This document shows positions 28,989 to 56,546 of a stretch of DNA of 64,000 bases, one piece after another. Origin of the DNA: a virus; the IMG/VR virus record IMGVR_UViG_3300005337_000001, positions 32,001 through 96,000 of that record; one strand, 5' to 3'. Each line of letters starts with the position of its first letter. Position 1 is the first letter of the stretch. Below the pieces are notes generated by a model that was not told where the DNA came from, did not search any database, and saw only the letters and a program-made list of their open reading frames with translations. Made by a program: the position numbers and the translations under genes.

Positions 28989-29026
28989 CAAACACTTGGC
29001 CAAATCGGGCATAAGAGTAGAGAAGG
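28989..29026 (+). promoter_or_regulatory. phage promoter motif CAAA-N18-ATAAGA-N5-GAAGG
   Basis: exact motif; GAAGGAGG doubles as SD of the 29039 gene. Confidence 0.65.
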
Positions 29027-31427: not shown

Positions 31428-32333
31428 CTAACCTACTGAGATGGCGGCTGGCACGTCCCCAAGTACCGGTGTGTTTGGGATGCGAATGATCGAGCGGTCG
31501 GCACGCAAGGCTTGGAGCTCGGCGGTGCCGACGCCAATGCCGCGCAGCACGAGCTTTGATGGCGTCACGTCGACAGCGGCGATGTTGGTGTCGCTGATGC
31601 GCCAGAGCACATCGACGAGCGCGGTGCCAGGCAGCTCTCGCCCCGACGACGCCCACACTGTAGGTATGATTTCGATTTCCGCCGAGGGGCCAAGGCCGAT
31701 GTTGTACGGGCCAGGCGGGTCCAGCGTGACGCGCTCGATAACCGGGAACAGCAGGTCCGGCAGATTGGAGCTCGGGTAGTCGGGGATGGTGATGCAACGC
31801 TGCTGATCTTCGAGACCTTCCACCGTCACGTCGTACTGACCAAAGCGCACGAGGTCGACTTCGAAGTAGCCGCGCTCGTCGGTGCGCCCATGCACACGCT
31901 CTTTGAGCATGGCGTCACCTTCGAACAGTAGCGGGTCGAACCGCGCAATGAAGTGGATGTCGTGGTTCGGAGCTACAGCGCCGTTGGGGTACAGGAAGAA
32001 GCCAGAGCAGCGGCATAGCCGCGGGTGCACAGCCTCTGGCGGCTTGTACACGTGCCCGGTGATGGGAAACTCGTTGGTCAGCGGAGCGACAGGGGCTTCG
32101 AGCACGCTGAAGTTCTGCACGGGGTAAAGCGAAAACTTTGTCTTGAAGAAACGCGCTTGGTAGCTCACTGGTGCTAGCAGGTTGAACAGCACCTTGCCGT
32201 CCGCATCGCTAGTGCCCTGCATGAGAAACGTGACGCCCGTGCTGTCGAAGACTCGAACCACCACACCGGGCACCGGCGTCTTAGCTGGATCGTCGTCGGT
32301 GCAGATGATGGTGACGAGCTCGAAAGACGACAT
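31428..32333 (-). CDS. virion structural protein with prealbumin/Ig-like folds
   Basis: PVPGVVVRVF..GTSDADG.V.F; RTDERGYFEVDL; C-terminal Ig-like (Big-2-like) segment. Confidence 0.6.
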   Translation of the reverse strand: MSSFELVTIICTDDDPAKTPVPGVVVRVFDSTGVTFLMQGTSDADGKVLFNLLAPVSYQARFFKTKFSLYPVQNFSVLEAPVAPLTNEFPITGHVYKPPEAVHPRLCRCSGFFLYPNGAVAPNHDIHFIARFDPLLFEGDAMLKERVHGRTDERGYFEVDLVRFGQYDVTVEGLEDQQRCITIPDYPSSNLPDLLFPVIERVTLDPPGPYNIGLGPSAEIEIIPTVWASSGRELPGTALVDVLWRISDTNIAAVDVTPSKLVLRGIGVGTAELQALRADRSIIRIPNTPVLGDVPAAISVG

Positions 32334-50338: not shown

Positions 50339-50607
50339 TAAATCACCGTGTCCGTCTTGATGAGGAAGTCCTTCACGCTGCGCGGCGGCGGGGTGCCGGC
50401 GTAGGGCTCGCCCTGACTGATGGCAAAGGCGGTGGCCTTCACCATGATAGAGAGCAAGTCTTCCGGTACGATTTTGTCGCGCAGCATGAAGCGGTAGATG
50501 CGCCCATTCTTGCGCAGAGAAATCGGCACTTCGATGCGCTCGCCGAGCGCGCAGCCCGGCGGGATGCGGAGCTCGGTCACGTCTTGGAACAGCAGAGACT
50601 TGGCCAT
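50338..50607 (-). CDS. small tail-module protein
   Basis: between tape measure and baseplate genes; TGATG/TAATG coupling. Confidence 0.65.
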   Translation of the reverse strand: MAKSLLFQDVTELRIPPGCALGERIEVPISLRKNGRIYRFMLRDKIVPEDLLSIMVKATAFAISQGEPYAGTPPPRSVKDFLIKTDTVI

Positions 50608-53600
50608 CAGGGTGTCTTTTCGGGGTCTGTCTTGCCGGTGTTGCCGGCGATCTCGGCGAGCTTGGCGCGCGCGGCCTCGTTGGACTTGACCATGGCTTCC
50701 AAATATCGGTTGCTCTCGCCGATCTTGTCGATGATCTTTTCCTCGGGGGACTGGTTGCTTTTCGCCTGCTCCTCGAGCTTCTTCTTTGTCTCGTCGGTAG
50801 CACCAGCCATGGCCCGCGACAGGATGGCGCCGCCCTGAATACCGCCGCCCTTCTTGCTGGCTGCTGCGATGGATTCTTCGAGGCTCTTGACGAAGTTCTC
50901 GTCGCCGCCCACGCCGAGTCGTGCGGCCAGAGCTGCGGCAGCGCCGGCAGCGTCCTTGCCCTTGAGGCCCTTGAGCTCGTCGGCCCCGAACTGCAGGCCC
51001 AGCTGCGACGCAATAGCTCCCGCCGCACCCATCTTTCGCTTCGAGCCCTCGATGGCCTGGCCGCGCATGATCATCTCAGATGCCTGACCTCCGACCTCCG
51101 TACCGGCCATCTGCGAGCCAAGCGCGCGCAAGCTCTTCACGTCCATGCCGGACATCTGGTTGTACAGGTCTCCGCCCTTAGCGGTCATCTTCTCGTAGAT
51201 CGCCGCCTTCTCTTCCGGCGTCGACGCCTTGCTCATCTCCATGCCCAACGACTGCACTTCGAGCGCCATCTGCGCTGCCTGTACCGCACCCTGGCCGCCC
51301 TGCTTGGCCAGTTTCATCTTGGCGTCGTCAGTGAGCATGAGCGTGTCGACGACGGTGCCGCCGGCGCCACGACCGTCGCTGCCTGTGCGCACGCCCACGA
51401 GCTTGGCGATGCCGCCAGCACGCAGCGCCTGCATTTCTTGACGCGCGCTCTTACCAACCTGGCTTGCCAGCTGGTTGATGATCTCTTTGCGCTGCTCAGA
51501 AGCTGCGCCTTGCACCCCCTGCGCCTGGGCCAAGATGCTCTCCTTGGTGACAGCGTCGGGGTCGCCGCCCATCTCAGACACGGTCTTCTTGCGACGAGCG
51601 ATGAGCTTGCCCCAGTCCGCGTTCGACATCTTGTCGACGCCACCCTTGGCGTTGGCGGTCTTCATGAGGTCGGCAGTCAGTCGTACCGACTCGAGCGCGC
51701 CGAGTCGGCCCTGCTCATCCTCGCTCAGCTTGTCGATACCACCACGCTCGGCGCCGGCGCCACGGATGTTCGAGATAGCGCTGAGCAGGCTTTCTTCAGA
51801 ACCAGCGGCGCCCGAGAGCGCGTCGAACGCAACGCGGCGCATCTCAGGGTCGTCGAGCGCAGCGCCGGCGGCACGGGCGCGCTTGGCGTTGCCGTTCCAC
51901 TCTTCGAGCATTTGGCCACCCAAACCGCCAAGCTTTTTACCCAGGAAACCACCAGCGGCCATGCCGGCTGCGCCGCCTAGAAAACCACCAGCAGCGCCGA
52001 GCGCGCTGCCGATCGCACCGGAAGCGCGGGCCATCCCGCTCTTACCAAGGCCGAGCATCGAACGACCCATCACCTCTTGGCGTTGAGCTTCCGTACGCAA
52101 GCTGCCGCCGCCCACCATGTCCGACAGACCAGGGACCTGGAAGGTCTCGCTCAAACGTCCGGACTTGATACCAATCTCGCCTTCCATCTGCTGCATGAAC
52201 TCGGCCTGCTCACGCTGGTCCATGCCGCGGAACTTCTTCCCCATCGCCGTGTCTTTGCCAAAGTGGCGCTTGAATGCAGCCATGCGGTCCTCGCCGCCCA
52301 GACCGCTGAGCTCGTCAGCGTACGCGCGCTTGAGCTCGAGCGAGTTGCCCTTCACCAAGCCGGCCATCTCGTCGCTCATGCTGCCAGCGGTGCCAAGGCG
52401 TGCGGAGAACTGCAGGTCCTCCACGTGCTCTTTGTAACGAGATTGGCTGAAGTTCTCGCGGGGGCCACCCATCCCGGTCATGGCACCACCGCCCAGGTTG
52501 CGGATGAAGCCATTGCTGCCGGTCAGGCTGCCGCGCGCTGCCGCGCCTTCACGCCCGCCCATCATAGCCACGCGGTGCGCCTCGCGCACACCGGTGATGA
52601 TGTGCTCCTCGTAGGTACCGGCGATGCGGTTGCCCCACTCAGAAATCTTGTCGGTGGCCACGTTCAAGATGTCCTGCCCGGCCTTGTTCATCTCGTTGTT
52701 GACCTTGTCGCGCGCAGCCTCGAGCTTGCGCTTCACACCTTCGATGCCCGAGTTCTGAGCGCGAAGACCATGCTCGCGCACCATCGAGTCGTCCTGCTGC
52801 GCCTCGCGCCGGTGCTGCATCATCTCCGGCATCTTCCGGACCATCTTCATCATCGAGTCCATCTCGTCGCGCCCCATGCCGAGCTGCCGCTGCATGAACA
52901 GCATTTCGCGGTCGCCCATCGAGTGAACGTCGATCCCCTTGCCCTGCGCCCAGCCCATCATCGCCATGGCCGGAGCCATGCCACCGAACTCTTCCATCAC
53001 AGCACCACGCAGGCGCCCTTCGTTACGGATGAAGTTGGCGCGGCCCACACCAGCCAGGTTCTTGTGCGCGGCGTTGCGTGTGTCGTTCACGCTCATGCCG
53101 CCCGTGAGAAAGTCGTTGACTGAGCCTTGGTTGAGCTTCCCGTCCTTGCCGGCGAGCGAAGCCAGAAGCCAGCGGCCTTTGCTGGACTTCAAAAAGCTAC
53201 CCGTCTGCATCATGTTCTGCTGCGCCATGGCAGCACGGCCTTCAGCCCCGGTTTGGCCCGTGGCTTGGAAGATGTCCTCTTCGCTCAGCGCGCCGACCTG
53301 CTGCGCGATGCCGACTTGCTCGATGGCTTTGATGCCGCCCATCGCGCCCTGTCTGCCGGTACCGCCGAACATGCGGCTGATCTGCGAGCCGGCGTTCATC
53401 ATGCCGGTGACTTCGGTCGTAGCCAGACCGCCGCTCACTGACGCAGCACGGATCGCTCCGCTCACACCAGCCTGGTTACGGAAGACGCCCGACCCTTTCA
53501 TGGAGGCCATCGTCTTTTGCGCCTCCTCGAGCGTCGTACCCATGTCCTCGGCGATGGCCTTCACCGACTTCATCATCTCGCGAAACTTCTCGGTGAACTC

Positions 53601-54209
53601 CTTGGAGTTGCGCACGCCGTCGGCGAGACCCATACGACCCATGTTCGACGCGAGACGACCGAGCTCGTTGAAGCTAGGCCCTAGCTCGGTGAGGCCACCC
53701 TCACCTGCCATGCTGCGCATGTTGCCGCCGATGGATCGAATATCACCTTCGGAGAAGCCACGACCGTGGCTAGCGCCAGGATTGAAGAACGAGTAGCCGT
53801 TGCGCATCGACTGGTTGAATTGCTGGCCCTGCTGCATGCCCTGCATGACCTGGTTGCCCATGTAGCTGATGGCGCCGATGCCAAGAGCCATACCGCCGCC
53901 TACTGCAGCACCAGTCAACGCAGCTCCACCAAACCCAGCACCTGCCCCCATCGCTCCGGCGCCGGCGCGCACGCCTATTGACATCGGGTCGAGCCCCATC
54001 ATGCCAAGGCCGAGCATTGCCGCGGGAGCGCCGATAGCACTCGACGTGTTGAGCGCGCTGGCGGCCATACCTTCGCTCTGTCCACGCGTGTTCATCCCGC
54101 CGAAGTTGTAGCCGTTCGGTTGAATCATCCCCGCGTACTGCATCTGCTGCATGTGCTGCTGGGTGAAGGACCCATTCAGCTGGGCGATTTGTGCGGAGGA
54201 AAGCGGCAT
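50607..54209 (-). CDS. tape-measure-like protein
   Basis: 1200 aa, A/G/M/Q-rich helical protein with hydrophobic G-rich segments, upstream of baseplate genes. Confidence 0.7.
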   Translation of the reverse strand: MPLSSAQIAQLNGSFTQQHMQQMQYAGMIQPNGYNFGGMNTRGQSEGMAASALNTSSAIGAPAAMLGLGMMGLDPMSIGVRAGAGAMGAGAGFGGAALTGAAVGGGMALGIGAISYMGNQVMQGMQQGQQFNQSMRNGYSFFNPGASHGRGFSEGDIRSIGGNMRSMAGEGGLTELGPSFNELGRLASNMGRMGLADGVRNSKEFTEKFREMMKSVKAIAEDMGTTLEEAQKTMASMKGSGVFRNQAGVSGAIRAASVSGGLATTEVTGMMNAGSQISRMFGGTGRQGAMGGIKAIEQVGIAQQVGALSEEDIFQATGQTGAEGRAAMAQQNMMQTGSFLKSSKGRWLLASLAGKDGKLNQGSVNDFLTGGMSVNDTRNAAHKNLAGVGRANFIRNEGRLRGAVMEEFGGMAPAMAMMGWAQGKGIDVHSMGDREMLFMQRQLGMGRDEMDSMMKMVRKMPEMMQHRREAQQDDSMVREHGLRAQNSGIEGVKRKLEAARDKVNNEMNKAGQDILNVATDKISEWGNRIAGTYEEHIITGVREAHRVAMMGGREGAAARGSLTGSNGFIRNLGGGAMTGMGGPRENFSQSRYKEHVEDLQFSARLGTAGSMSDEMAGLVKGNSLELKRAYADELSGLGGEDRMAAFKRHFGKDTAMGKKFRGMDQREQAEFMQQMEGEIGIKSGRLSETFQVPGLSDMVGGGSLRTEAQRQEVMGRSMLGLGKSGMARASGAIGSALGAAGGFLGGAAGMAAGGFLGKKLGGLGGQMLEEWNGNAKRARAAGAALDDPEMRRVAFDALSGAAGSEESLLSAISNIRGAGAERGGIDKLSEDEQGRLGALESVRLTADLMKTANAKGGVDKMSNADWGKLIARRKKTVSEMGGDPDAVTKESILAQAQGVQGAASEQRKEIINQLASQVGKSARQEMQALRAGGIAKLVGVRTGSDGRGAGGTVVDTLMLTDDAKMKLAKQGGQGAVQAAQMALEVQSLGMEMSKASTPEEKAAIYEKMTAKGGDLYNQMSGMDVKSLRALGSQMAGTEVGGQASEMIMRGQAIEGSKRKMGAAGAIASQLGLQFGADELKGLKGKDAAGAAAALAARLGVGGDENFVKSLEESIAAASKKGGGIQGGAILSRAMAGATDETKKKLEEQAKSNQSPEEKIIDKIGESNRYLEAMVKSNEAARAKLAEIAGNTGKTDPEKTP

Positions 54210-54242
54210 CTACTTCCCAAGATCCTAACACGTGGCACCAAG

Positions 54243-54280
54243 CAAAAAGCTCGGGGCATCGGAGATAAGAATGATGAAGG
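54243..54280 (+). promoter_or_regulatory. phage promoter motif CAAA-N18-ATAAGA-N5-GAAGG
   Basis: exact motif; divergent from the tape-measure gene. Confidence 0.65.
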
Positions 54281-54423
54281 CGCTGGAAGCCCTCTCTTCG
54301 GAGAACCTCCTGCGAGATTGCTCCTCCTTCTTGGGCCAGCGCCTCGGCGTGCCCTTCGGCAAGGCACGTCATCGTGTCCCCCACACCCCCACCAGCAGGA
54401 CTCGTCATCCTGTTGGTGGGGTG
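54279..54423 (+). ncRNA. candidate structured ncRNA or long 5' leader
   Basis: closing stem 54279-85/54337-43; two C(UUCG)G loops; 14-bp hairpin 54387-54421. Confidence 0.5.
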
Positions 54424-54462
54424 CCGCTTGCTGTGAAAGTCGACCAAGCTTCAAAACTAGCC

Positions 54463-54900
54463 ATGCATCGAAACCAAACATCCATCATCTTCACGCCGGA
54501 CCAGCTGCTACGAGCCGTCAAAGGCTGGTGCTGGGACTGCGGCGAGAGAGTGCCTGACTACATCGTGCAGAAAGAGGTTTGGAATGCAGCCTGGCCCGGC
54601 GACGATCGAATGGGTACTAAACGTCTCAAGCGTCTGAAGCAAGCAGCGACCAGGGTCTTTCCTGAACGCGCTCGCTCCATCGACAGCAACCTCGTGCACG
54701 TTCACGTCCACCTGTGCTTCCCCTGCTTGGAGAAGAGGCTGGGCAGGAAACTAGTCATCACCGACTTCACCACCAAGACCAGAGCGGGGAAGATCGTCAA
54801 GGAGAACGCTGGGATCTTCCTCGGCTTCATGTTGGGGCAGAAGGTAGAGCGTGCGAAAAAAGGCGAGGAAACCGGGGATAAGAAAGATGAAGGAGGATAG
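54463..54900 (+). CDS. conserved phage Zn-binding protein
   Basis: CWDCG..DYIV...VW...HLCFPCLEKRLGR.L...DF. Confidence 0.7.
   Translation: MHRNQTSIIFTPDQLLRAVKGWCWDCGERVPDYIVQKEVWNAAWPGDDRMGTKRLKRLKQAATRVFPERARSIDSNLVHVHVHLCFPCLEKRLGRKLVITDFTTKTRAGKIVKENAGIFLGFMLGQKVERAKKGEETGDKKDEGG
54856..54893 (+). promoter_or_regulatory. phage promoter motif (AAAA-N18-ATAAGA-N5-GAAGG)
   Basis: motif within the 3' end of the 54463 gene; GAAGGAGG is SD of ATG 54903. Confidence 0.55.
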
Positions 54901-54902
54901 CA

Positions 54903-55045
54903 ATGTCCCAACAATCAGGTGAGCTGGCGCCGTGCTGAGCGTAGCCAGCCTCATCGCCGCCGAGTGGTTAGTTGAATTCGCCATCGGCTGGCACAACGGT
55001 TTCATGCGGAAGTACCGCCAAGCGCAAAAGGAAGGACGACTCTGA
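54903..55045 (+). pseudogene. small membrane protein with a probable 1-nt frameshift near 54930
   Basis: strong SD; MSQQSGELA continues as VLSVASLIAAEWLVEF..GRL* (TGATG coupled) if one base is added. Confidence 0.45.
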
Positions 55046-55365
55046 TGCTGACCCCCGTACGTGAGATGGCTGAGCCGGAGCGTCGCCGCCACCAACAGAA
55101 CCTAGGCCTGGTCATTGTGACCCGGCGTTCCGATCCACCACTAACCGAGAAGAGAAAAAGAATGGACGAGACGGCACGACCCCAAACCCCTCGCGCTGGC
55201 ATGAGCCGCGCTGCCCAGACCCTCGAGCGAATGACGGAGACGCCGACCTTCAAAGAGGTCGCGCTCCACGAGCTCCAGCGCGCGTCGGTCTACGTGCCGA
55301 TGCTGTTTTCAGCAGGAATTGGGCTGCTTTGGCTCAACAAGCGCTTCTTCCTGAAGGTCATCTGA
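55045..55365 (+). CDS. protein with C-terminal TM helix
   Basis: TGATG coupling; VYVPMLFSAGIGLLWL. Confidence 0.6.
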   Translation: MLTPVREMAEPERRRHQQNLGLVIVTRRSDPPLTEKRKRMDETARPQTPRAGMSRAAQTLERMTETPTFKEVALHELQRASVYVPMLFSAGIGLLWLNKRFFLKVI

Positions 55366-55559
55366 CCGACGCCAGGCAGAGGCGGAGAAGGCACAAGACC
55401 AATCGGTCACGTGCCTTTTCGTAGCCCTGTGGCGGACATGTGGCGCCTCAATTGTGGTGATGAGCTGCCCACACCCCAAGATGAATTCCCTTGAACTTCG
55501 CTGAGAATTCCCCAAACTACGGACCAGGCAATCAAGCCTATCCGAAATGCAGGTGCACC

Positions 55560-55853
55560 ATGGCCAAGCAGACCTTCTTCCAGATGGGTATGAACCCGCT
55601 CGGAAATGCCGAGGTGATGCTGGACGTGTGCCGTAAAGAGTATGAGAAAGCTGGTCGCGCTGCGGATGTCGAGGAGCTCAAGAGCATCTCGGTCCGTAAC
55701 GCAGACGGCGCTCGTCTCGCGCTGCTCACCGTCTGGCACCTCCCGGAAGACATTCACGTCACCGACATCAAGCGCTACACCGTCGTAGCAATGCGCTTGG
55801 CGGTACGTGCGACCGATCGCCAGCGTGGTTCGCAGCTTCAGCTAGCCAGCTGA
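55560..55853 (+). CDS. hypothetical protein
   Basis: SD AGGTG before ATG 55560. Confidence 0.7.
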   Translation: MAKQTFFQMGMNPLGNAEVMLDVCRKEYEKAGRAADVEELKSISVRNADGARLALLTVWHLPEDIHVTDIKRYTVVAMRLAVRATDRQRGSQLQLAS

Positions 55854-55862
55854 CAGCAGCTG

Positions 55863-55900
55863 CAAAACACCTCCTTCGCACGGAATAAGAGAAGTGAAGG
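55863..55900 (+). promoter_or_regulatory. phage promoter motif CAAA-N18-ATAAGA-N5-GAAGG
   Basis: exact motif. Confidence 0.65.
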
Positions 55901-55929
55901 CACAGACGTGGGGTCTGTGCGAAGGAGGT
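55869..55929 (+). promoter_or_regulatory. RBS-occluding stem (anti-SD/SD)
   Basis: ACCTCCTTCGCAC 55869-81 is the perfect reverse complement of GTGCGAAGGAGGT 55917-29. Confidence 0.65.
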
Positions 55930-55934
55930 TCCAC

Positions 55935-56546
55935 ATGTTGCTGTTCGAAGTACACGAAAGCGTGCGCCCAGGTTTCAACTTAGTCTTGGACGATGGTGAA
56001 GCAGGCGTGCCAATGGGCTACGACGACAAGGTCGGCGGTAAAACTTGGTTGCCGCTCGGCAACTCCGTCGAGCGGTGGCTGACTCATCCCGAAGATCAAC
56101 GGGAAGAGTTCAAGCTGCTGCACGCGCATCTCGAAGAGAAGAACATCGGCTTCTGCCTGACGGGGCAGACCGCCGAAGAAGCAGCGCTAGAAAAAAGAGC
56201 GCTGGTGTTGATCGACGGCTGTACCGATCCCGAGGTAGGCGTCACCATCATCGCAGAGGCTTTCGGAAAGACCATGCCGGAGCTGGTGACGCACACACAC
56301 GGCGATGGACATTCGAGGCAGCTCTACATCTTCAATCACGGCGACGCGCTGTTCATCAGCTGGTCTGCTGCGTCGTTGGAGGCGAGCCGCCCCAAACGTT
56401 TCATCGTTACCTGGGACGCGGAGAAGAAGCAGTTGTTGGAGACGTCCGTTGGCCGCCCGCGCCGGAACTCGAGGCCGACGAAGAAGCAGGAGAAGAAGCG
56501 CCAACAGCAGGCACCTGCGGTGGGTCAGGAGTTACGACCGGAATGA
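55935..56546 (+). CDS. hypothetical protein
   Basis: SD AAGGAGGT before ATG 55935. Confidence 0.75.
   Translation: MLLFEVHESVRPGFNLVLDDGEAGVPMGYDDKVGGKTWLPLGNSVERWLTHPEDQREEFKLLHAHLEEKNIGFCLTGQTAEEAALEKRALVLIDGCTDPEVGVTIIAEAFGKTMPELVTHTHGDGHSRQLYIFNHGDALFISWSAASLEASRPKRFIVTWDAEKKQLLETSVGRPRRNSRPTKKQEKKRQQQAPAVGQELRPE

Follow-up and report, generated by a model that had tools for sequence, protein, structure and literature searches.

The put and nut sites of phages HK022 and lambda are promoter-proximal stem-loop RNAs. An element for which such sites are among the closest described parallels lies at about 54276-54430, plus strand, of a 64,000-nucleotide (nt) stretch of viral DNA, hereafter the window (positions 32,001 to 96,000 of the IMG/VR record IMGVR_UViG_3300005337_000001). 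The record from which the window is taken is complete and carries direct terminal repeats, the whole genome being 195,580 base pairs (bp). On the comparative evidence set out below this region encodes a conserved structured non-coding RNA of about 150-190 nt, which displays a pyrimidine strand identical to the anti-Shine-Dalgarno (anti-SD) core of 16S rRNA and which may, tentatively, be a new phage riboregulator that pairs with ribosome-binding sites of the GGAGG type. For the bacterial RNAs RsaE and RoxS, two papers describe unpaired C-rich motifs that pair with G-rich Shine-Dalgarno (SD) regions (PMC6158497, PMC5419742).

With RNAs of the RsaE/RoxS type, and with those of the actinobacterial 6C type, the phage RNA has in common a stem-loop scaffold bearing unpaired pyrimidine motifs complementary to G-rich ribosome-binding sites, and the action proposed for it, SD occlusion, would be that of RsaE/RoxS. 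It differs from the latter in being phage-encoded and larger, in its multi-branch domain (P1) and probable pseudoknot, in the placing of its main motif in a junction and not in a hairpin loop, and in having no terminator of its own in the window, where it probably runs into an mRNA; there is no sequence or Rfam similarity between them. Like HK022 put and lambda nut, the RNA heads an operon directly after a putative phage promoter, combines conserved stem-loops with unpaired bases and could act in cis. However, it is roughly twice as large as put, occurs once per genome and is devoid of a BoxA or BoxB consensus, and its anti-SD-like tract is without counterpart in those sites. A different type of parallel is with leaders that sequester an SD by means of an anti-SD, as in the platforms of translational riboswitches and in type I toxin mRNAs such as hok and aapA, where an upstream CCUCC could pair with a downstream GGAGG. 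The corresponding partners here would be the tract and the SD at 54886-94, such that only transcripts from an inner promoter would be translated. Yet 560 nt lie between the element and that SD in the window, and about 150-200 nt in a distant clade; no covariation supports the pairing, and the phage RNA is far more elaborate and is kept whether or not the gene in between is there. The Escherichia coli rpsA leader also has three successive hairpins before a start codon that lacks an SD (here that of the gene at 54463), but without any sequence relation, and driving the translation of such a gene cannot be the conserved function of the phage RNA because the RNA is retained in relatives that do not have that gene. 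The phage RNA is, in short, a member of none of these groups, whether C-rich-motif small RNAs, anti-SD leaders or antitermination RNAs.

The evidence for the RNA is chiefly comparative. The set used comprised 18 sequences, of which 13 are close loci (the DNA of database homologues of a neighbouring zinc-finger-like protein, together with four contigs matched by an invariant DNA pattern) and five are from distant phages of 186-190 kb, reached via a pattern of loop plus linker and by searching with the large virion protein encoded next to the RNA. The 13 close loci were aligned by MAFFT and folded with RNAalifold, and the alignment of all 18 was fitted to a covariance model, R1. Taken singly, the 148-nt stretch of the window has a minimum free energy (MFE) of -72.8 kcal/mol, in comparison with -52.6 +/- 3.7 kcal/mol for 200 dinucleotide shuffles, none of which was as good (z = -5.53). 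From the 13 loci RNAalifold recovers three helical elements, P1, P2 and P3, amounting to 31 pairs, with 97.5% of cells paired and compensatory changes at 12 of the 31, a level reached by 0 of 500 shuffles; sliding the partners by 1-3 columns lowers pairing to 35-48%. With all 18 sequences, 96.7% of cells are paired and 21 of the 31 pairs are compensatory, again with 0 of 500 shuffles reaching this and with slid registers at 39-46%. This larger alignment is model-fitted, and the independent MAFFT alignment, with its 12 of 31, agrees in direction. The stems are those that the initial annotation, made from the letters of the window, had drawn, at the same coordinates except that the P1 helix extends to 54278/54344, and the covariation for which it had proposed a search in related phages is thus present. 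With model R1 a single copy is detected in the 195,580-bp genome and in each related locus. Seventeen related phage contigs carry the element, again one copy in each genome, the group consisting of uncultivated phages of ~186-196 kb; the copies in the five distant phages, diverged and scoring 39-65 bits with the model, are in the same place. No copy of the RNA was found in a still more distant phage, L147.

Features of the locus in window coordinates (pairing and promoter assignments are predictions).
Feature	Position	Strand	Remark
Class-I phage promoter motif	54242..54270	+	GCAAAA (54242-47), 17-nt spacer ending GGAG, ATAAGA (54265-70)
P1 domain	54278..54344	+	closing helix 54278-85 with 54337-44, plus GCCC 54289-92 with GGGC 54333-36
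P1a hairpin, UCUC-UUCG-GAGA	54293-54304	+	inside P1
P1b variable hairpin region	54305-54319	+	inside P1; contains ACCUCCU
Anti-SD-like tract, GCUCCUCCUUCUU	54320..54332	+	core CCUCCUU equals the 16S rRNA anti-SD core
P2 hairpin, GUGCC/GGCAC	54349-53 with 54363-67	+	4/5 pairs compensatory
P2 loop, CUUCGGCAA, 9 nt	54354-62	+	nearly invariant, CUU(C/U)GGCAA; the sole variable position is C/U
Linker motif, UCCCCCAC	54377..54384	+	CCCCAC invariant in 18/18, single-stranded
P3, 14-bp hairpin	54387-54400 with 54408-21	+	10/14 pairs compensatory (18 sequences)
3' tail, UGCCGCUU	54422..54429	+	GCCG 54423-26 could pair with CGGC 54357-60 (candidate pseudoknot)
Conserved spacer end, UUCAAAACUAGCC	54450..54462	+	UAGCC at 54458-62
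Zinc-finger-like gene, 145 amino acids	54463..54900	+	two CxxC pairs (CWDCG ... CFPCLE); start supported by ten homologues of 140-148 amino acids
Second class-I promoter, in 3' end of the 54463 gene	54855..54906	+	GCGAAAAAA ... GGGGATAAGAAAGATGAAGGAGGA (also read GCGAAAAAA ... GGGGATAAGAA), then TAG and the next ATG, 54904
SD, GAAGGAGGA	54886-94	+	complementary to the tract; ahead of ATG 54904

In the outer helix of P1 four of the eight pairs are compensatory among the 18 sequences. Hairpin P1a forms in every homologue from differing letters (CUC/GAG, GCUCU/AGAGC, CCCA/UGGG, CUCC/GGAG), and P1b varies in both length and sequence. The P2 loop and the tail 3' of P3 probably form a loop-to-tail pseudoknot, with one covarying pair as its comparative mark: a loop C goes with a tail G in 14 sequences and a loop U with a tail A in four, with no exceptions, and the GCC of the tail is invariant. 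A single evolutionary event is probably behind this switch from C-G to U-A or the reverse. The linker between P2 and P3 has a predicted unpaired probability of 0.7-0.99 in most homologues. Pairing of its CCCCAC with the 3' arm of P3 was considered and rejected, as it is not maintained in L146, one of the distant phages, where the linker is unchanged although the P3 arms have become CCUCACC/GGUGAGG. The P3 loop, CUCGUCA (54401-07), is invariant in the close clade and different in the distant clade. In one distant locus (L142:2305-2449, minus strand, the same as L141:1954-2098) it reads CCCUCCCCCUC, a C-rich anti-SD-like display elsewhere on the scaffold.

The most conserved unpaired element of the predicted RNA is the anti-SD-like tract. 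In the form GCUCCUCCUUCU (54320-31) it is identical in 12 of the 13 close loci, the thirteenth having a single C-to-U change, and the distant clade has CCUCCUUCU, CUCCUUCU or CCUCCUCU in the equivalent position, immediately 5' of the strand that closes P1, with the core CCUCCUU kept; the version in L146, CACCUCCUU, is a longer match to the 16S tail. Partition-function folding gives the 3' seven bases of the tract an unpaired probability of ~1.0 in most homologues. Two unpaired tracts of this type had been proposed in the initial annotation, and their fates diverge: that at 54320-32 is conserved in place, whereas ACCUCCU at 54305-11 is lineage-specific, being confined to the four closest sequences, and is predicted to be paired in the window's own MFE structure. 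A second element of CCUCC type is present in 12 of the 18 homologues at non-homologous places (the loops of P1a or P1b, or the arms). Altogether P1 domains contain 75 CCUCC/CUCCU pentamers, in comparison with 7.7 +/- 3.1 in shuffles, an approximately 10-fold excess in a count that, the sequences being related, is not independent.

Which strand and which type of molecule are involved can be judged from the same alignments. There are 24 G-U cells in the 13-locus alignment, and on the complement, where G-U becomes C-A, pairing drops from 97.5% to 93.5%; because these cells pair only on the plus strand, the RNA is placed there, and an RNA of the minus strand is disfavoured. This strand preference is also pertinent to whether the conserved feature is one of DNA, such as an operator, a replication origin or a packaging site. 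The region is intergenic, the units on either side of it are transcribed divergently, and inverted repeats may be bound by proteins. However, the tolerance of G-U on one strand only, the continued pairing of helices whose sequences change freely, and unpaired tracts that are strand-specific pyrimidine runs make a DNA-level element highly improbable. A further alternative is that the region is an N-terminal coding extension of the 54463 gene. The window does have an open reading frame (ORF) from 54232 (or ATG 54271) to 54900, and two of the 12 database homologues of the 54463 protein have been called longer, at 205 and 175 amino acids, with extensions that look weakly similar; the other ten, at 140-148 amino acids, start at the ATG equivalent to 54463. 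Against it, the distance from the ATAAGA motif to the ATG of the family is 191-221 nt among the 13 loci and falls in all three phases (0, 1 and 2), an in-frame stop is present inside the element in seven of the 13, and in three the ATG at 54274 is replaced by ACG. On these grounds, and with compensatory changes and G-U pairs that fit RNA, the coding extension was rejected and is scarcely credible. The impression in the initial annotation that the extension is not protein-like is borne out, and translation in frame with amino-acid conservation in homologues, which it had set against its RNA, is not what these loci hold. The weak peptide similarity of the two long calls is accounted for by conservation of the helices at the nucleotide level. 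Since the frame is not preserved, the extension is an accidental open frame in GC-rich DNA; by this comparison the true gene start is ATG 54463, and the ORF annotated from 54232 or 54271 is over-extended. In the 13 loci no conserved small upstream ORF ends at the invariant UAG that precedes ATG 54463, and termination-reinitiation from such an ORF was also rejected, the stop-to-stop frame of the window being 21 nt without a start.

Directly upstream of the RNA is a motif, GCAA-N17-GGGnATAAGA, that is recurrent across the phage genome and whose copy here is kept in 18 of 18 homologues. Its hexamer, ATAAGA, has 22 copies in the genome, and the extended form, (C)GGGnATAAGA with GCAA/CAAA ~17-18 nt upstream, has about 15 in the 195.6 kb; the pattern GATAAGAANNATGAAGG has three matches in the window where 0.03 are expected. 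Most extended copies lead directly into (R)TGAAGGAG and a start codon, i.e. a GAAGGAG ribosome-binding site. That at 54265 is the sole copy leading into a structured RNA, and its 5' GAAGG pairs within P1. If the motif is a phage promoter, here termed class I, the 5' end of the RNA is expected near 54275-54277. The earlier description of the RNA as promoter-driven is thus upheld in that the RNA begins at the expected start of a recurrent conserved motif, and it is this motif that carries the claim.

A tandem promoter of the same class is always present downstream of the RNA, and in the distant clade it follows after about 60-110 nt. In the window's clade it is embedded in the zinc-finger gene, the last ~45 nt of which are nearly invariant at synonymous sites (13 loci, L001-L016). 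Because of this invariance, the end of the protein, AKK..GDKKDEGG before the stop, is taken to reflect the promoter and the SD of the next gene; the C-terminal tail, which is disordered in the AlphaFold model with a predicted local distance difference test (pLDDT) value below 50, is probably a by-product of these DNA signals. Terminators of the phage consist of a GC-rich hairpin, a U-run and UAGCCC, with about 11 copies, including those at window positions 55422 and 56601, and the UAGCCC box could either signal termination to a phage polymerase or mark a site of processing. The terminator at 55422 is the only strong one of phage style downstream of the RNA, and it ends the cassette. Between the RNA and the 54463 start, the UAGCC at 54458-62 may be a remnant of the terminator-associated UAGCCC motif. 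YUAGCY before the start is kept in 18 of 18 homologues, including those without the downstream gene, and the distant clade reads YUUAGCYCC. In L143 alone, one of the distant phages, a hairpin, a U-run and AGCUC come directly after the RNA in the manner of a phage-style terminator. Inspection of the spacer by eye gave no convincing -10/-35 for a leaderless promoter of the 54463 gene.

How might such an RNA act? On the reading that it is a riboregulator pairing with GGAGG-type sites, the RNA would be made as the 5' module of a transcript from the upstream promoter, which in the window's clade would probably continue into the SD-less gene at 54463 and which in some relatives may end as a discrete RNA of ~190 nt. 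From the rigid scaffold the invariant pyrimidine strand CCUCCUUCU, which has the sequence of the 16S anti-SD core, would project, often along with the second CCUCC element and the linker UCCCCAC, and the exposed strands would pair with GGAGG-type SDs of phage mRNAs and so keep ribosomes off. The likeliest targets would be SDs at the 5' ends of class-I transcripts of the phage itself. The adjacent one at 54886-94 would be reachable in cis on read-through transcripts or in trans, and the RNA would be a translational repressor, or timer, of class-I genes. The complementarity of TCCTCCTTC to GAAGGAGGA at 29022 and 54889, pointed out in the initial annotation, is confirmed: with the SD at 54886-94 the tract shows 9 nt of perfect complementarity, and with 29021-32 it agrees at 11 of 12 positions, both sites being 5'-proximal SDs of class-I units (at 54878 and 29011), whose leaders carry GAAGGAGG. 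The duplex of the tract with the leader that contains 54886-94, at -17.8 kcal/mol, is the best among class-I leaders, and five of the ~15 such leaders reach -14 kcal/mol or better, against 1.8% of background windows. In L142 two of the three changed positions of the tract are compensatory with the downstream SD, an anecdotal case.

Several considerations weigh against pairing with SDs as the function. Complementarity to strong SDs is automatic for any sequence with CCUCC, and other sites in the genome pair with the tract as well or better, at -18 to -19.6 kcal/mol. The tract shows no covariation with any target: it hardly varies, and the SDs of the distant clade do not track it convincingly. 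In the window's clade the MFE structure often pairs the first five bases of the tract (GCUCC) with the internal GGAG after UUCG, with UCCUUCU staying free, and in the window no canonical U-tract terminator follows P3. The invariant loops, the CCCCAC linker and the candidate pseudoknot suggest a compact tertiary fold of a type more typical of RNAs that bind a protein, a ligand or a polymerase, and a sponge for SDs would have to compete with abundant ribosomes. Given the automatic match, the rival sites, the lack of covariation with targets and the features akin to those of protein-binding RNAs, the probability that the RNA is a regulator acting by SD pairing is put at only about 0.4. The more general formulation, that a compact pseudoknotted RNA presents a copy of the anti-SD, either to soak up the SDs of an mRNA class, as a translational shut-off or timer consisting of RNA only (compare T4 RegA), or as a decoy for a factor that binds or cuts the 3' end of 16S rRNA, is considered unlikely.

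The main alternative is a leader that acts in cis on the polymerase or on its own mRNA without SD pairing, whether by antitermination of the put/nut type, with the CU tract as a BoxA-like Nus site, or as a 5' stabiliser. The RNA begins at the expected transcription start with its 5' end paired in P1, between it and the downstream genes the window's clade has no terminator, and the cassette runs to the phage-style terminator at 55422. The tandem promoter of the same class ~600 nt downstream would give two transcript isoforms, which could behave differently, and invariant loops with a pseudoknot are what a conserved host machine might recognise. However, each early operon has its put or nut site but a genome has a single copy of this RNA, the terminator of L143 directly after the RNA is awkward for such a role, and neither sequence nor Rfam gives similarity to any antitermination RNA. 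The resemblance of the tract to BoxA (GCUCUUUA) is loose, and the extra enrichment for CCUCC would be left unexplained. A cis-acting leader is accordingly rated as rather doubtful, to be taken seriously but not expected.

Less weight still is given to two other proposals. In one, the RNA imitates the 3' tail of 16S rRNA and titrates a protein, be it a defence or toxin ribonuclease, bS1, bS21, initiation factor IF3 or a maturation factor. The identity of the CCUCCUU core to the anti-SD in both clades, with its extension in L146, the suitability of a compact pseudoknotted scaffold for a stable decoy, and the greater conservation of the RNA than of the neighbouring protein, as expected for a conserved host partner, are all in keeping with this. 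Yet the support consists of sequence identity over 7-9 nt, the tract is inside a junction and not at a free 3' end, no candidate partner emerged, and the phage collection contains no isolate relative; such a decoy is quite unlikely. In the other, a riboswitch-like leader senses a ligand or a protein and so controls the downstream genes. Its 5' position, multi-helix fold, invariant junction and loop nucleotides and pseudoknot would be apt, and an alternative pairing is possible, of GGAG with the P1a arm or with the tract. But no expression platform is evident, with neither a sequestered adjacent SD or start nor a terminator/antiterminator pair, the downstream gene differs between clades and there is no match to an Rfam riboswitch, all of which leave this improbable.

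Database searches place the RNA outside described families. With Rfam 15 no match overlaps the element (window 53000-56000, E <= 10), as the check proposed in the initial annotation has turned out, and six homologous loci gave none at E <= 1; the predicted RNA is a previously uncatalogued family. Neither by DNA nor by protein is there a relative in the collection of isolate and cultured phages, searching the genome contig and viral contig collections with the zinc-finger family gave no match, and a strict 22-nt pattern had no match in IMG/VR. A degenerate pattern for the tract was found at no fewer than 120 loci of bacterial and archaeal genomes, none of which matches RNA model R1, and therefore these provide no prophage copy and no clue to the host. 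Literature searches gave no description of such an RNA.

The relationship of the RNA to the zinc-finger-like gene is relevant to its independence. The gene is beside the RNA in 13 of 13 close loci, whereas in the five distant homologues (L142-L146) the RNA is kept and the gene is missing from its place, and a whole search of one 187,857-bp record (G001, 99% complete) gave no zinc-finger gene at E <= 1. The gene looks like an insertion, or a loss, exactly between the UAGCC box of the RNA and the next promoter. Because distant relatives keep the RNA without the gene, the RNA is not merely the leader of the 54463 gene, and the suggestion that it is a regulatory leader for that gene is weakened. 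RNA identity exceeds that of the coding sequence in 11 of 12 comparisons, e.g. with L007 the RNA is 92% identical, the coding sequence 61% and the protein 42%; by this measure the predicted RNA is under stronger constraint than the adjoining gene. Being better conserved than that gene, it probably contacts a partner that the phages cannot change, such as the host translation or transcription machinery. Upstream of 54463 there is no SD, the duplex energy with the anti-SD being +0.3 kcal/mol. About a third of the AAGGAG sites in the genome precede starts, and therefore the host can use SDs. For the 145-amino-acid protein itself, the AlphaFold2 model has a pLDDT of 73, Foldseek gave no PDB match at E <= 0.001, Pfam gave a sub-threshold match to DUF7561 only, and the only family match is to phrog_6053, of unknown function.

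Descriptions of structured RNAs from large uncultivated phages are few, and the comparative support here is unusually clean. If pairing with SDs or imitation of 16S rRNA were true, a phage would be steering translation with RNA alone, and the RNA would offer a compact natural scaffold for SD-targeting regulators or, as a ribosome mimic, be a new kind of phage RNA. For annotation of this phage group the gains are the correction of an over-extended gene call and a definition of promoter and terminator grammar.

Some other features of the surroundings deserve mention. On the minus strand, 54222-54230 (TGTTAGGAT) resembles an extended -10 box, TGnTAGGAT, and is conserved; this box precedes the start codon at 54209 by 12 nt, just upstream of the gene for a 1200-amino-acid Gly/Ala/Met-rich virion protein (50607-54209, minus strand). 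From its position, a late transcript would be nearly leaderless and would exclude the complement of the RNA. In a relative with a 99-kb contig (L001:3448-3765) an extra gene of 105 amino acids separates the gene for the large virion protein from the promoter of the RNA, with promoter and RNA intact. On the other side, at 54904-55045, an 11-codon ORF (54904-54939) after the strong SD overlaps a GTG-started ORF of 37 amino acids (54932-55045). Relatives have a 37-amino-acid gene, or one of 61-97 amino acids, directly after that SD, and the arrangement in the window's phage may reflect a frameshift or a local rearrangement.

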